Shown here: positions 7,300 through 12,656 of the stretch, in pieces
Position numbering within the stretch: position 1 is the first letter of the stretch
Layout of the letters: each line of letters starts with the position of its first letter
Source of the DNA: Candidatus Bathyarchaeia archaeon
Lineage (GTDB): Archaea > Thermoproteota > Bathyarchaeia > Bathyarchaeales > Bathycorpusculaceae
Reading direction: 5' to 3'
DNA length: 22,870 nt
NCBI GenBank assembly: GCA_038883855.1
Contig: JAVZLH010000016.1
Span: 1 to 22,870 of the forward strand
Made by a program: the position numbers and the translations under genes
Notes under the pieces: model-generated
What the model saw: only the letters and a program-made list of their open reading frames with translations
Told to the model about the DNA's origin: nothing
The model's database searches: none

Positions 7300-8337
7300 T
7301 TATTGCTCGAGTTTTGCTCCGCAGTTGGGGCAGAACTTAACTCCAGCTTGGATTTCGCTGTTGCATTTTGGACATTTAATGGTGGCTTGTAACGGTGTTC
7401 CGCAGTTGCCGCAGAATTTTGTTCCAGCGGGGTTTGATGTGCCGCATTTTAGGCAAGTGATGCCGGCTGCTTGTAGTGGTGCGCCACAGTTGCTACAGAA
7501 TTTTGCCGTTTGCGGATTTTGGAAGTTGCATTTTGGACATAATACCATTGTTTGTGTAGGTGCTGGTGCTGCTGGTTGTTGAAACAGAGGCGGAATTATG
7601 GCTACTCCAGCTCCGACGGCTGCTCCGGGGCTTTTTGATAGGCTTTCTGCTGATTTTTGAACTGTTTCCATTCTTAGAACTTCTGTTGCACCAACTCCAG
7701 TTTTTATGTAGAATAATCTGTCTCTCCACTCTGGGGTTGTGTCGATTCCTTCAAATTTCACATCGATTAATTCAAGACCTATCCGTGAAAAGGCGTCGAA
7801 GAGCACGTTTTTTGCGAGAAGGCTTGTTTCGTCAAGTTTGCCGTATACGTCTGCCAGCGAATATTGGCTTAAAGTGTCAATGAGCCTTTCATTAAAGTAT
7901 CCTCTGAGAAAGTTTTGCAGTCCATCTGTGGTGAAAGCTCCTTGCCCGCCTACAACTTCGTTGACAAAGAGGTTTGGTTCTTCAACTCTGAACCAGAAAC
8001 CGCCAAAGAACTTAAGCGGTGCAAGCTCTTTGGTTTGTCCTTGCGCTCCAAACTTTCCTTGGAACTGTTTTAAAGAGACAAAGATGACGGTTGCTCTGAA
8101 AGGAACTTTGTCGAACCCAGCGATTTTTGAAATTATTTTTGTTAGTAATGGGAGGTTTGCTGTTGTCAAGACATGGCGTCCAGCTCTGAAAACGTCGTAG
8201 GCCTTTCCGTCTCTGAAGAAAACCGCGGCTTCATATTCGTGGACGACGAGGTTGTCTCCCCACACAATTTCTTCGACGGGGTATCTCCAAACGATGTCTC
8301 CTTCTCTTGCTCCAACCCACTCAATGACTTTTGGCAC
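7300..8337 (-). CDS. SPFH (Band_7_1) domain protein with three C-terminal double-zinc-ribbon units; YdjI-like
   Basis: VIEW...IVWRYP...LVVHEYEAAVFFRDGK...G.H.LTT.NLP SPFH N-terminus, a Pro/Ala/Gln linker, and three C-x2-C...KFC-x2-CG units. GTG start. Confidence 0.9.
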   Translation of the reverse strand: MPKVIEWVGAREGDIVWRYPVEEIVWGDNLVVHEYEAAVFFRDGKAYDVFRAGRHVLTTANLPLLTKIISKIAGFDKVPFRATVIFVSLKQFQGKFGAQGQTKELAPLKFFGGFWFRVEEPNLFVNEVVGGQGAFTTDGLQNFLRGYFNERLIDTLSQYSLADVYGKLDETSLLAKNVLFDAFSRIGLELIDVKFEGIDTTPEWRDRLFYIKTGVGATEVLRMETVQKSAESLSKSPGAAVGAGVAIIPPLFQQPAAPAPTQTMVLCPKCNFQNPQTAKFCSNCGAPLQAAGITCLKCGTSNPAGTKFCGNCGTPLQATIKCPKCNSEIQAGVKFCPNCGAKLEQ

Positions 8338-8354
8338 TCCAATTTCACCTCCTT

Positions 8355-9551
8355 TTAAATCACTCCTTTAGGAATCCAAGGTCTTTGTCCAGCTATGACG
8401 CTTCCGGTACATGCGTCAACTATCACGGAAAATGATTTGCCGCCCATTCTATATTCTATAAACCACCAAGGCGCATACACCAGTTCAGTTTCTTCCATGG
8501 GATAAGCTTCAACATTAAACCGTGAAACAAAAGTGTATCTTGACCTTAACTCTTGCAGAGCCAGTCCTTTTGCTTTTTCCTTAGCCTCTTGAGAGCTTAT
8601 TTCAACGTTAAGCGTTTCTTCTTCTGTTTTCTTGAACGGTTCTTTCCTATCAAGAGGGTTTTTGTAAGCGCCAACATCGGGTTGATATTGGGCTGCTTTA
8701 CGTGCCACAACAAAAACGTCCATTGCTTCACTGACGGCAACTCTTTCCTTTCTATCCGCTAAAGCCTTTCCCGCTCCCTTTCCAACTCCGCCGAAAATGC
8801 TTCCCAAGGCTCCTCCTAAGGCCTGCATTGCAACTTCTTGGGCAATCTGTCCCTTTGCATCTTTCGTTTTTACCAGTGCCTTTTTGCCTTCAAGGTCTCC
8901 TTCAAGTTGAACGGTTACAGCCCAATTTGGAACATATCTGAGAATTATGGCGCCCCATTCAGCGCGTTCAGCCATGCCTCTAGTGACAAGGATTCCTTTT
9001 GCAGCGTGGGTTTTTGCTGTTTCCAACGCTTGAGAACCAGTAAGTAGGATTGGTAGCATGCTGCATCTTGGAGGCTGTTCGCCAGTTGTGTTGTTAACGT
9101 ATCCGCAGTAGTTGCATATTACCAGAATTTCCTCTGGATTATATGTTAAAGGAGCACCGCAGTGAATGCATGCCTCAAGTTTAGGTTTCGGCGTTGGCGG
9201 CGGTTGCGGTTGAACTGGGGTTGGTGCAGCAGTTGACGCCGTTGGCAAAACTGCTCCTAAGCTCTTAGCCATTTCTATGGCTTCTTGTTTCTTTTGCTCC
9301 TTCCATCCAATTAAATTGCTTGGGTTATCGCATGAGTTTGCAAGAGCCTGTTCCACAACATCCATTAAATCGGCTGGCCCATCAACTTCGACATATACAT
9401 CTTCTGGTACTCCTCTAACCTTAACCATTGCCTTGTCAAAAAATCCTTTTTTCAGTTCAAGCATGAAGCTTTTTTCGCCTGAAATAACCTTCTTTGTGCT
9501 CCACCCGATTTGCTTAAGGTATTCTGGCAAAACCTGTTGAAAGTTTCCCAT
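8355..9551 (-). CDS. YdjG-like zinc-ribbon protein with extra N-terminal domain and Gly-rich insert
   Basis: CIHCGAPL...CNYCG; YVPNW; YAPWWFIEY..G.....VDACTG.V..G.RP C-terminus similar to B. subtilis YdjG; Pro-rich linker. Likely start MGNFQQ (9551); the ORF track gives 9587. Confidence 0.75.
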   Translation of the reverse strand: MGNFQQVLPEYLKQIGWSTKKVISGEKSFMLELKKGFFDKAMVKVRGVPEDVYVEVDGPADLMDVVEQALANSCDNPSNLIGWKEQKKQEAIEMAKSLGAVLPTASTAAPTPVQPQPPPTPKPKLEACIHCGAPLTYNPEEILVICNYCGYVNNTTGEQPPRCSMLPILLTGSQALETAKTHAAKGILVTRGMAERAEWGAIILRYVPNWAVTVQLEGDLEGKKALVKTKDAKGQIAQEVAMQALGGALGSIFGGVGKGAGKALADRKERVAVSEAMDVFVVARKAAQYQPDVGAYKNPLDRKEPFKKTEEETLNVEISSQEAKEKAKGLALQELRSRYTFVSRFNVEAYPMEETELVYAPWWFIEYRMGGKSFSVIVDACTGSVIAGQRPWIPKGVI

Positions 9552-9583
9552 TTTTGCTCCTATTTGGCGGTAACAGGCTGAGG

Positions 9584-10120
9584 TCATCCTCCCAATCCTC
9601 TAAGAATCTCCGACCTCTTATCCACAAGTCCATCAAGCTCTTCAACCTTTGATATTAACTCGTCCATCGCTGTTCTCCACTCGTCTTTTCCGGGTTCAAG
9701 TTCGTTTACCCTTTCAACGTTGGTTTTTATGGCTTCGGCTTTTTCTATTAGGCTTAAGTCATAGTCAATAACTGTGTCAAGCTTGTCTTCCTTAACCTTA
9801 ATAGCGTCGAACATTTCAGCATACCCAGCGACTGCCCTGTCTATGCGTTGGGTGACTCTGTCGATTCTGGCTGTAAGCGTGTCAAACATAAAAGTGTCTT
9901 CGCTTGAAAGCTTCTGAACAAGTAGGGGATTTGCAAATTTCCTTCTAAAAGCGGTTTTCGCAGCCTTAAGCCTATTCACAACTTCCATCCTAACAAGACG
10001 GTCGCTTTCTCTTCTAAGCTCCTTCTCTTTGTAGCCTCTATATCTAGGGATGTAACTCATTATTTTCTCGAGAAGACTTCGTTCTTTTCGAACTTTTTCC
10101 AAGTAGTCTTTTTCACTCAT
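9584..10120 (-). CDS. Conserved all-alpha/coiled-coil hypothetical protein (178 aa)
   Basis: MSEKDYLEKVR...IPRYRGYKEKELRRESDRLVR...AGYAEMFDAIKV...YDLSL. Its ATG overlaps the upstream TAA (TAATG at 10118-10122), so the 10330 extension in the ORF track is spurious. Confidence 0.8.
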   Translation of the reverse strand: MSEKDYLEKVRKERSLLEKIMSYIPRYRGYKEKELRRESDRLVRMEVVNRLKAAKTAFRRKFANPLLVQKLSSEDTFMFDTLTARIDRVTQRIDRAVAGYAEMFDAIKVKEDKLDTVIDYDLSLIEKAEAIKTNVERVNELEPGKDEWRTAMDELISKVEELDGLVDKRSEILRGLGG

Positions 10121-10458
10121 TATTTGCTCCTCCAGTATGCGACTATGCCTATAACTGCAATAGCAATTAAAAGTATGCCTAAAACAACGAATATGCTTAA
10201 CACGCTGTAGAAGGCTGAAGCTATTGCAATGGTGAGCATTATGATGCCCCAAACCAAGTGGTACGTTATTTCTTTTGAGGCTGTAAATGAAAAGATTATG
10301 GTGTAAACTCCGAGAGGACCGAATAGCCAAGCGAGAATGTTGAATATATTAAGGGGAATTATGTTTGCGCCGTAGATCACCGCTGCTAATCCTGTTGAGA
10401 TGACGAGAATAACGATGGCGCCTATATTGTAATCGAATACTTTACTTTCTGCGTCCAT
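10120..10458 (-). CDS. Small four-TM membrane protein
   Basis: Four hydrophobic segments; translationally coupled to the next gene. Start MDAESK at 10458 (or 10470). Confidence 0.8.
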   Translation of the reverse strand: MDAESKVFDYNIGAIVILVISTGLAAVIYGANIIPLNIFNILAWLFGPLGVYTIIFSFTASKEITYHLVWGIIMLTIAIASAFYSVLSIFVVLGILLIAIAVIGIVAYWRSK

Positions 10459-10499
10459 CTTATTCCTCACGATATGCTTAACCTATTATTTGTGATGGA

Positions 10500-10515
10500 T
10501 TCATTTAAAGTTTCG
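10500..10515 (-). promoter_or_regulatory. BRE/TATA-like promoter (GAAAC-TTTAAAT) for the 4TM-helical-YdjG-SPFH genes
   Basis: Minus strand reads cgaaactttaaatga, about 45-50 nt upstream of the 4TM start. Confidence 0.45.
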
Positions 10516-11267
10516 TCACAATATTCCAAAACCAGCAGCGGGTATGTCGCCTTTGATGACGGTCCCTTCTGCTCCGTCTATTATTAATTGGTAAGTCTTA
10601 CTCTTATATTCACATTTTATAAACCATATGGGTGCATGTAAGTAAACCGCTTGACTAACAATTATTTCCTTTTTGATTTCAATTACCTTGTCCACATCTT
10701 GCTGAGCCAAATATTTATGGTGTTCTTCAATTTCTTCTTTTGCCCGTTCCAAAGCTTCGTCTCTGTCTATTTCGCTGTTTAGCGTCTTAGCGTAGTCTTC
10801 AATTTTTCTAAAGTCATATGGGACTTTGCCTCTAAAGGCACATCATATTCTCTTGTTGGGAACTCGGTTGCTTTTCTCGCCAAAATCAGCCAATTGTATT
10901 TTTTCTTTATCAACCCTTCTTTAACGACGGCTGGGGTTATGCGTTCAAAAATTCCTTTGTAGGTTGTTTCCGCTTCCGCTGTTACAATCCAAAAAGGTAC
11001 GTAAATCAGAAATTTTTCAATAATTTTTGATTTTTTGGCAAGGTCTGGAGGCTTTAGAAAACCCGATTGCATCCAGCTTTTTGCAAGTTCTTCAATCTGC
11101 GTTGGGTCATATTTGTTCAGTAGCATGGAGTGCTCGAAGGTGAAGGCTTTTCCAGTTTCTATTACGGTTGTGTAACCGCAGTATTTGCATGTTGCCACCA
11201 TCTCTCCGGGTTCAAAAGGCAATGGTGCTCCGCAATGTGAACATTTTATTTCGTGCACTATCGCCAT
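10516..11267 (-). pseudogene. YdjG-like zinc-ribbon protein split by a single-base frameshift (about 250 aa if restored)
   Basis: ORFs 10779..11267 and 10516..10752 join if one G is restored in GAG-G(G)C at about 10829-10830, giving EYDVPLEGKVPYDFRKIEDYAKTLNSEIDRDEALERAKEE. The joined protein is collinear with paralogue 8355..9551. Confidence 0.85.
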
Positions 11268-11273
11268 TTGCCC

Positions 11274-12656
11274 TTACCCTTTGTTTTTCTCCCTTCTTAT
11301 GATTTCCCGTGCAACAATAAGCCCTGAAGCCGATGCTTGTATTAATCCTCTGGTTACTCCAGCGCCGTCGCCTATGGTAAACAAATTGTGTATTTTTGTT
11401 TCGAGGTTGTTGCTTAACTGAAGCCTCGAAGAGTAAAATTTCACTTCAATGCCATAAAGAAGTGTGTCTCTCGAATTTATACCAGGCGCAATTTTATCAA
11501 GCGCTTCGAGCATTTCTCTTATGTCAGCCAGATAGCGATAAGGCAAAACGAAGCTTAAGTCGCCTGGAGTTGCGTTTTTTAGGGTTGGCTTGACTACGCT
11601 GCGGGCTATTCGCTCTGGGGTTGACCTTCGCCCAGACTGTAAATCGCCTAAGCGCTGTATCATTACGCCTCCGCTTAATAGGTTCGAGAGCCTGGCGAGG
11701 TATTTTCCATAAGCTATGGGTTCTTTGAAAGGTTCGGTGAAGGATGTGCTTACGAGAATGGCGAAGTTTGTGTTTTCTGTTTTTCTCTCCGCGTAGCTTT
11801 GACCATTAACTGTTAAAACTCCATTGTATGATTCAGTTATTACCTCACCGTAAGGCGCAACGCAGAAGGTGCGAACTTGGTCGTCGAAGGACTTTGAGTA
11901 ATAAATAAATTTAGGCTCGTAAAGTGTGCTTGTCAGTTCTTCCATTACTGAAGCCAAAACCTCAACTCTGATTCCCACATCAACGGGGTTGTTAAGCGTC
12001 TTTAATCCTAAAGCTTGGGCTTCGGTTTGAAGCCACTCAGCACCGCTTCTTCCAGGCGCAACAATGACATATTTTCCAAAGAATTTCTCGCCGTTTACAG
12101 TTTCAACACCTTCAATGGTGTCACCTTTCACTATAAGACCTTTTATGTCAGTTTTCGGTCTAAAATCAACTTTGCCGTTTAATTCTTGCCGCATTTTTTT
12201 AAGGGTTTGAGCACATCTTTCTGTGCCCATGTGGCGGATTTTTTGGCGGATAAGCTTTAACCCTGCCAAAGAAGCCTTTCGTTCGATTTCGTCAATTTTT
12301 TCAAGGTCTTCGCCGTAAGAGTGTTCAGTTGCTCCAAACTTCAGATAGATTTCATCAACATGTTTCACAAGCTTTTCAAGCTCTTCTTGAGAAACATACT
12401 GGTTAAGCCAGCCGCCCACCTCCGTGGACAATGTAAGTTTTCCGTCGCTGAATGCTCCCGCCCCACCCCAACCGCTGAGGAGCAAGCACGGTTCGCAGTT
12501 GACGCATTCGAATCCTCGGCTAGCTGGGCATTTACGTTGGTGAATGTCTGGTCCCCTGTCAAGCATGAGAACGCTAAGTTTGGTTTTCTCCGTAATTTCA
12601 AGCGCCGAAAATATTCCTGCGGGTCCCGCACCGACAATTATCACATCATACTTCAA
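11274..12656 (-). CDS. NAD(P)/FAD-dependent oxidoreductase (COG2509-type uncharacterised FAD-dependent dehydrogenase)
   Basis: YDVIIVGAGPAG Rossmann motif, Cys cluster, GWGGAGAFSDGKL, VRTFC..PYG.V, EVKFYS and GDGAGVTRG. Confidence 0.9.
   Translation of the reverse strand: MKYDVIIVGAGPAGIFSALEITEKTKLSVLMLDRGPDIHQRKCPASRGFECVNCEPCLLLSGWGGAGAFSDGKLTLSTEVGGWLNQYVSQEELEKLVKHVDEIYLKFGATEHSYGEDLEKIDEIERKASLAGLKLIRQKIRHMGTERCAQTLKKMRQELNGKVDFRPKTDIKGLIVKGDTIEGVETVNGEKFFGKYVIVAPGRSGAEWLQTEAQALGLKTLNNPVDVGIRVEVLASVMEELTSTLYEPKFIYYSKSFDDQVRTFCVAPYGEVITESYNGVLTVNGQSYAERKTENTNFAILVSTSFTEPFKEPIAYGKYLARLSNLLSGGVMIQRLGDLQSGRRSTPERIARSVVKPTLKNATPGDLSFVLPYRYLADIREMLEALDKIAPGINSRDTLLYGIEVKFYSSRLQLSNNLETKIHNLFTIGDGAGVTRGLIQASASGLIVAREIIRREKNKG

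Follow-up and report, generated by a model that had tools for sequence, protein, structure and literature searches.

We analysed a stretch of 22,870 nucleotides (nt), hereafter the window, from contig JAVZLH010000016.1 of the Candidatus Bathyarchaeia archaeon assembly GCA_038883855.1. The subject of this report is a cluster of five genes at positions 7300–11267, all on the minus strand and co-directional, in the order A, 4TM, HEL, B and SPFH (Table 1). A and B are YdjG-like proteins, HEL is a helical protein and 4TM is a small membrane protein; FADox is an FAD-dependent oxidoreductase and LysRS is lysyl-tRNA synthetase. The intergenic gaps A/4TM, 4TM/HEL, HEL/B and B/SPFH are 45, −1, −4 and 17 nt. 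HEL and B overlap as ATGA, and the 4TM stop codon overlaps the HEL ATG as TAATG, by which 4TM and HEL are translationally coupled. The hydropathy analysis marked 4TM as the only transmembrane-grade product (maximum 19-residue Kyte–Doolittle mean 3.29, against at most 1.17 for the others). The original prediction for this DNA, made without database searches, had described the co-directional cluster, the TAATG junction and a frameshift in A, and all three were recovered.

Table 1. Genes of the cluster and the upstream neighbour, in window coordinates (aa, amino acids; ORF, open reading frame; TM, transmembrane).
Feature	Coordinates	Strand	Description
A, N-terminal part	10779..11267	−	162-aa ORF with one zinc ribbon, a helical stretch and a YxPFW strand
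A, C-terminal part	10516..10830	−	−1 frame, after the one-base deletion at ~10828–10831
4TM	10120..10470	−	116 aa, four TM segments; sole integral membrane product of the operon
HEL	9584..10120	−	178 aa, predicted four-helix bundle, family undescribed
B	8355..9587	−	410 aa: N-terminal alpha/beta domain (1–111), Pro-rich linker, one zinc ribbon, YdjG core with a Gly-rich helical insert
SPFH	7300..8337	−	345 aa, soluble, Band_7_1, three C-terminal zinc ribbons
FADox	11274..12656	−	Pfam FAD-depend_C, Pyr_redox_2 and DAO; upstream neighbour

The genome survey showed that the conserved core of the module is HEL followed by SPFH, not the YdjG pair. The HEL profile matched 152 of the 301 Thermoproteota genomes sampled, and the matches spread over 65 of 123 genera. 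Linkage was counted in the 148 genomes with a listed HEL match, using the Band_7_1 positions among the 150 matches listed. A Band_7_1 gene lay downstream of HEL on the same strand within 300 nt in 123 of these genomes, within 3 kb in 138 and within 5 kb in 142; six genomes had no SPFH gene on the same contig among the matches listed. Of the 17 relatives' regions, 14 hold both genes, and in every one HEL precedes SPFH on the same strand. SPFH was present in all 20 divergent Thermoproteota loci (14-kb stretches); in 17 of them it had the same direction at a distance of at most 500 nt. The cluster genes were also found together in loci of other genomes; the original prediction would have been refuted otherwise.

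HEL relatives were named in Pyrobaculum arsenaticum, P. ferrireducens and P. islandicum, and they also occurred in NCBI records labelled Acidobacteriota (Pyrinomonadaceae) and Chloroflexota (Anaerolineae, Caldilineae). The claim that the cluster is a distinct archaeal system was not upheld, given this spread through half of the Thermoproteota sample and into bacterial records. Among 80 metagenome loci seeded with bacterial-type HEL, SPFH followed within 300 nt downstream in 66 and after an insert of 1.3–1.7 kb in 4. The contig ended first in 8 loci, and 2 had room downstream yet no SPFH, giving SPFH downstream in 70 of 72 informative loci. A sample of 201 Bacillota genomes, among them B. spizizenii, gave no HEL match.

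What stands between HEL and SPFH varies. In the window the 1.2-kb B gene separates them, and the distance between the HEL and SPFH matches is 1.3 kb. B holds this place in 3 of the 17 relatives, and among the listed genomes only in G246, G205 and G212; a divergent copy (B′) lies upstream of HEL in 2 of the 17. In one relative (G012), a gap of 606 nt without a called homologue lies between HEL and SPFH (L029:8423–9028), which may be the remnant of a lost B gene. Three Acidobacteriota-like metagenome loci encode, in B's place, a protein that combines a zinc ribbon with a predicted TM stretch and a Toastrack (DUF4097) domain, identified by Pfam at L066:1369–2619 and L068:1613–2785 and by a near-identical ORF at L069:2536–3708. 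Toastrack is tied to Psp and Lia systems in the excerpted text of Ravi et al. (PMC11237479). Such a neighbour fits an envelope-stress setting.

Other proteins were seen near the HEL-SPFH pair. Directly downstream of it, L097:5885–8185 and L130:2750–5005 encode proteins of some 750 aa that contain two DUF4178 stretches besides several zinc ribbons. The insert between HEL and SPFH at L086:5492–7083 encodes an SRPBCC (polyketide-cyclase-like) protein and a PsbP-like protein with a hydrophobic N-terminus. Small ORFs of 104–128 aa lie on the opposite strand beside B′-HEL′-SPFH′ clusters (L018:10066–10380, L019:3201–3587, L052:4559–4906), and their sole resemblance is to the zinc-ribbon tail of the SPFH protein.

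As a reference, the pspA-ydjGHI locus of four Bacillus species was located through a published primer, and its genes were read in B. spizizenii. Pfam identified PspA there as PspA_IM30, YdjG by two zinc ribbons, YdjH as TPM and YdjI as Band_7_1 (PF13421, E 1.4e-42) with a zinc ribbon. The last gene of the window cluster matched Band_7_1 with E 1.5e-27, Zn_Ribbon_1 in three stretches and DZR, and its product has no TM segment. BLASTP aligned it with B. spizizenii YdjI at E 2e-11, and we assign it as a YdjI-type soluble SPFH protein. Band_7_1 matches were found in 222 of the 301 Thermoproteota genomes. Three terminal zinc ribbons are also present in a bacterial-type SPFH protein (L065). An in-frame insertion of 3 bases (CGT, plus strand) at position 7572 occurs in related-strain contigs of three runs; the site is in the low-complexity linker from the SPFH domain to the first zinc ribbon.

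BLASTP matched the N-terminal part of A (E 2e-8) and B (E 1e-6) to B. spizizenii YdjG. With hhalign, the A-type profile aligned to the YdjG profile at 99.9% probability (E 3.2e-31, 230 columns), and a joint alignment of A- and B-type proteins did so at 99.9% (E 2.4e-31, 247 columns). On the YdjG side the alignments start at the second zinc ribbon and reach to where the core ends. When 1.84 billion representative proteins were searched with B by phmmer, 145 matched at E ≤1e-3, and B. spizizenii YdjG also matched 39 of these at E ≤4.4e-25. By the profile comparison, both A and B are genuinely homologous to the YdjG core. Each has a single CxxC...CxxC pair and no hydrophobic segment (maximum Kyte–Doolittle mean 1.08–1.09). 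One or two C-terminal TM segments are present in YdjG-like proteins of other Thermoproteota. The predicted homology to YdjG and YdjI, the three zinc ribbons of SPFH and the missing C-terminal anchor of A and B were thus all borne out. YdjG-like profiles had matches in 122 of the 301 Thermoproteota genomes.

The A gene is split by a single missing base at about 10828–10831, as judged against two genomes of the same genus. A contig from another run (depth 4.3) equals the window over 10740–10905 except for one extra base at the break, which restores the A frame; the extra base is also found in further contigs from other runs. A is intact (247–258 aa) in all 17 other loci holding it. Because of these intact copies and the otherwise identical, frame-restoring contig, the break is local and stems from a mistake in the assembly or from a very recent mutation.

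The AlphaFold2 model of B has a predicted local distance difference test (pLDDT) score of 84.9. It shows a confident N-terminal alpha/beta domain (1–111), a disordered Pro-rich linker and then the zinc ribbon. In the core, a long beta-hairpin is accompanied by a Gly-rich helical insert of low confidence (residues 240–280), which is not found in A-type proteins. Weak matches of the core were to PepSY-type folds (4exr, Z 6.2; YpeB 5boi, Z 5.7; YpmB 2gu3, Z 5.5). They agree with the term YpeB-related that Ravi et al. gave to the YdjG domain, in the text available from that paper (PMC11237479). Flpp3, the membrane-binding KA1 domain, the adaptin-appendage platform and a TBP-like fold were considered for residues 1–111 and set aside, their Z scores of 6.0–7.6 being at background. 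A search of the ESM Atlas with residues 1–115 gave a best score of 0.79, which is at chance level. B is 67–94% identical to 119 other listed proteins, and those at 86–92% carry NCBI names such as Candidatus Bathyarchaeales and Bathycorpusculaceae. B-type proteins are rare: full-length matches occurred in 5 genomes among those listed for the 301 Thermoproteota searched.

4TM matched no Pfam or NCBIfam family. Its profile found 55 of the 301 Thermoproteota genomes, and in 50 of these the gene is on the strand of HEL, directly upstream (≤100 nt) in 24 and downstream within 4 kb, after SPFH, in 26. One further genome has 4TM 174 nt upstream of HEL, and four have no listed HEL on the contig. Among the 17 relatives, 5 have the gene. 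4TM stands beside TM-bearing YdjG-like genes in one locus (L053) and without any YdjG-like gene in another (L054). It is therefore a recurrent third partner of HEL-SPFH and not a strict substitute for the lost YdjG anchor. The suggestion that 4TM replaces the anchor was right as to the partnership and wrong as to a simple stand-in.

HEL matched no Pfam family at E up to 1. It matched NCBIfam NF047596 (LIMLP_15305 family) with 50.9 bits and E 1.6e-13 over profile positions 5–172 of 175. This score falls far short of 210 bits, the curated cut-off, which excludes HEL from that equivalog; NF047596 is a narrow Leptospira model of a HEL-related protein. The AlphaFold2 model (pLDDT 75.4, predicted template modelling score 0.70) is a compact bundle with four helices of 23–30 residues. 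Its N-terminus is poorly modelled, with pLDDT below 50 at residues 25–31. Foldseek returned no match to this model at E ≤1e-3, and the best VIA-align match, to generic helical bundles, had Z 11.3, below the value of about 13 needed for helical proteins. The best hit of a sequence profile search of the PDB was an unrelated copper regulator (E 0.0047), and the ESM Atlas gave unnamed clusters only. The nine residues G29, Y30, R37, D40, R44, G99, L114, D121 and R169 are invariant in all 140 archaeal and bacterial sequences and are all present in the window protein. Two motifs, PGYxGYxxKExRR[DE]xD and GYAGFFDA, are common to both domains of life. Literature searches found no paper describing the HEL family or the HEL-SPFH pairing, although supplements, which were outside the search, could hold neighbourhood tables; LIMLP_15305 appeared only as a locus tag in a table. 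The HEL-Band_7_1 pair is thus unnamed in the searchable literature.

PspA_IM30 (PF04012) was found in none of 6 genomes, namely the organism's own (85% complete) and five relatives (93–100% complete). The same model detected PspA in 9 of 14 known genomes used as positive controls. TPM/YdjH (PF04536) was found in none of 5 genomes (the organism's own and four relatives of 93–100% completeness), and no product of the window locus matched TPM; the positive controls were detected in 8 of 14. In the original prediction HEL may replace PspA as effector, a role that stays hypothetical, and no sign of kinship between the two proteins was seen. HEL was considered as a hidden PspA or ESCRT-III protein and rejected, PF04012 and PF03357 being absent from its Pfam matches at E up to 1 and no PspA-like fold occurring among the Foldseek and VIA matches listed. 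Snf7 was found in 5 of 5 genomes. In the organism's own genome, contig C5 carries on a single strand, at about 54239–59026 (L038, L041), genes for a Snf7-like protein, a CdvA-like protein, a second Snf7 with a TrmB-like winged-helix tail and an ATPase with MIT and AAA domains (Vps4-type), a predicted Cdv-type cell-division locus. The predicted absence of PspA, ESCRT-III and TPM genes therefore holds at the window locus, and for PspA and TPM also in the genomes searched. It does not hold for ESCRT-III in the genome, because of the Cdv locus on C5.

The window is contig C16 of a genome of 24 contigs and 1.11 Mb, and near-identical DNA is present in sequencing runs labelled as hot-springs metagenome. 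Three RNA-labelled runs contained only a small part of the stretch (0.05–0.15 of the sampled words). The flanks encode metabolic and housekeeping proteins, namely class I LysRS, FADox, a cupin, an acetyl-CoA-synthetase-like enzyme, thymidylate kinase and aconitase X. Genes of mobile elements or of defence systems were not found in the window. FADox, the upstream neighbour, is probably co-transcribed, though it may not be part of the module. A bacterial-type promoter scan, of the wrong promoter type for an archaeon, gave 10 sites against 8.0 ± 2.6 expected by chance, and a bacterial-type terminator scan gave 8 sites against 7.6 ± 2.6, also at chance level.

The closest known system is the pspA-ydjGHI operon of Bacillus, since renamed pspA-samGHI. 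Both loci are tight co-directional operons and share a soluble Band_7_1 SPFH protein with terminal zinc ribbons, as well as a YdjG-type protein in which a zinc ribbon is joined to a YpeB/PepSY-related core. The Bacillus operon further encodes PspA and a TPM protein, YdjH, neither of which is present at the window locus. The Bacillus system is also marked by sigma-W induction under envelope stress and by recruitment of its SPFH protein to the membrane. The two N-terminal zinc ribbons and the C-terminal TM anchor of YdjG contrast with one zinc ribbon and no anchor in each of A and B, and the window SPFH has three zinc ribbons versus one in YdjI. The window further differs in having two YdjG paralogues, one of them with an extra N-terminal domain, and in HEL and 4TM, HEL being absent from the Bacillota sampled. 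The HEL-Band_7_1 pair of Thermoproteota and some bacteria is shared in full as regards order, strand and invariant residues, and the window differs from it by the B insert, most genomes having the short gap given above. The operons of stomatin with NfeD and of flotillin with YuaF/YqiJ, described in the survey of Hinderhofer et al. 2009 as far as its excerpted text goes (PMC2636767), likewise join an SPFH gene to a small partner in a conserved operon. The window has no NfeD-type partner; its SPFH protein lacks a TM segment and the partner is predicted to be a soluble helical bundle. The same excerpt lists SPFH8 and SPFH9 as soluble subfamilies for which no members were documented (PMC2636767).

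We consider that the locus is a YdjI/YdjG-type SPFH membrane-scaffold module with a partner set unlike that of Bacillus pspA-ydjGHI, with a probability of about 0.7; the mechanistic part is what we infer by analogy. According to the text available from one study, YdjI of B. subtilis is cytosolic, reaches the membrane through YdjG and YdjH, and recruits PspA (PMC8581546). Because of this behaviour we propose that the soluble SPFH protein assembles with its partners at the cytoplasmic face of the membrane. HEL would bind SPFH as a fixed adaptor or regulatory subunit, in the place that YdjH and PspA hold beside YdjI in Bacillus. In this lineage, attachment to the membrane would be through 4TM. 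A and B, which carry a zinc ribbon but no anchor, would be exchangeable adaptors, B contributing its extra N-terminal domain. The likely role would be housekeeping membrane surveillance or organisation under stress, not defence. The FADox...LysRS synteny, fixed across the family, and the metabolic flanks support a housekeeping setting.

Several observations weigh against this scaffold-module reading. Whole families keep HEL without YdjG-like genes (f33, 0/10; f35, 0/10; f30, 0/4), family f33 having HEL in 10 of 10 genomes, and YdjG-like genes are therefore accessory to HEL-SPFH. A is attached to its own place. In two relatives (G010 and G008) it stays between FADox and LysRS with the B′-HEL′-SPFH′ cluster elsewhere (L018–L021), and in G014 it lies between the same two genes with HEL and SPFH on a different contig. 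Since A keeps its FADox and LysRS place when HEL-SPFH is elsewhere, its membership in the module is looser than its position suggests. Six relatives (G005, G024, G018, G015, G003 and G026) have A-HEL-SPFH with no 4TM gene and no TM segment in A, so that anchoring through 4TM cannot be general; G019 also lacks a 4TM gene, and its A lies about 2.7 kb from HEL. The fold matches of the HEL model are uninformative on function. The stress role is borrowed from Bacillus, where a 2026 study, in its abstract, describes PspA-independent developmental effects and roles beyond membrane repair (PMC13713150).

The position of A also bears on whether the five genes are one unit. The module may consist of 4TM, HEL, B and SPFH, with A belonging with FADox or acting alone, which we regard as rather unlikely. 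The FADox stop codon is 6 nt before the A start (spacer 11268–11273), and A may share a transcript with FADox or be linked to it in function. The FADox-A...LysRS order is constant across the family even with HEL-SPFH elsewhere (L020–L023), as in G010 and G008, and in G014 and G006 the only neighbours of A are FADox and LysRS (L022, L023). A is, moreover, broken in the window genome. However, this break is not conserved, and A is a YdjG homologue, as is B. YdjG-like genes adjoin HEL-SPFH in 10 of the 20 divergent loci, as tandem pairs in 6 of them, and in 12 of 17 relatives the distance from A to the HEL cluster is at most 3 kb. If the scaffold is instead coupled to the cell-division machinery, SPFH or HEL would recruit the Cdv ESCRT-III proteins in trans, as YdjI recruits PspA, and the N-terminal domain of B would be an adaptor like the methanogen adaptin-appendage and TBP-domain proteins. 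Such proteins are encoded in the Cdv locus on C5. The Meth_adaptin ESCRT loci, as excerpted from Makarova et al. 2024 (PMC10936438), place an SPFH protein with zinc ribbons beside appendage and small alpha/beta (TBP-like) domain proteins, one with a zinc ribbon, and residues 1–99 of B gave weak matches to such adaptin-appendage, KA1 and TBP-like folds (Foldseek E 0.03–0.1). However, these matches are at background (Z <8), B-type proteins are rare, and the window locus has no Vps4, ESCRT-III or adaptin IG-like domain; no Cdv gene was linked to the cluster in the window or in any locus examined. We therefore hold recruitment in trans to be doubtful.

The function of HEL itself can be read differently. 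HEL may sense a ligand or be a small enzyme, with SPFH assembly under the control of its invariant charged site. Five of its nine invariant residues are charged (R37, D40, R44, D121 and R169), beside a G-Y pair and G99, and such strictness, with two motifs kept across both domains, is unusual for a structural helical bundle. The charged residues could equally form an interface with SPFH or an internal salt-bridge network, however. HEL has no match to an enzyme or ligand-binding family, and its first motif is partly in the low-confidence region of the model, which leaves this function improbable. The original prediction had also considered an anti-viral complex. SPFH or zinc-ribbon proteins are used by some defence systems. 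In PADLOC-DB 2.0, 5 of the 6 products had no family, and the only matches were weak and partial ones of HEL to coiled stretches of DrmD, DruC and LmuB (E 0.003–0.015). HEL relatives were found neither in 50,697 phage records searched by tblastn nor in a viral contig collection, and HEL itself occurs in half of the phylum sample. The place of the locus between housekeeping genes is fixed across the family, with no mobile or defence genes around it. There is no sign of an antiviral role, and we consider an anti-virus defence system very improbable, so that this part of the prediction is abandoned.

Returning to the scaffold-module reading, the varying third partners all carry zinc ribbons, which suggests a modular adaptor logic. 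We tentatively go one step further, to a view that we hold to be possible rather than probable. HEL may define a second, PspA-independent class of soluble SPFH assemblies across archaea and bacteria, in which a four-helix subunit carrying the invariant R-D-R-D-R site would cap or gate the oligomer and couple it to interchangeable zinc-ribbon membrane adaptors (YdjG-like, zinc-ribbon/TM/Toastrack, zinc-ribbon/DUF4178 and 4TM). The YdjGHI/PspA system of Bacillus would then be a derived special case and not the prototype.

SPFH scaffolds are universal, but the soluble YdjI type is understood only through a single operon, that of Bacillus, in which it acts in connection with PspA. In the window the same scaffold and a YdjG-type adaptor stand without PspA, beside a strictly conserved protein outside Pfam. 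HEL was found in half of the Thermoproteota sampled, cultured Pyrobaculum species among them, and has relatives in records labelled Acidobacteriota and Chloroflexota. This makes it a concrete, testable candidate for a missing partner, one that would explain how this class of SPFH proteins acts without PspA.

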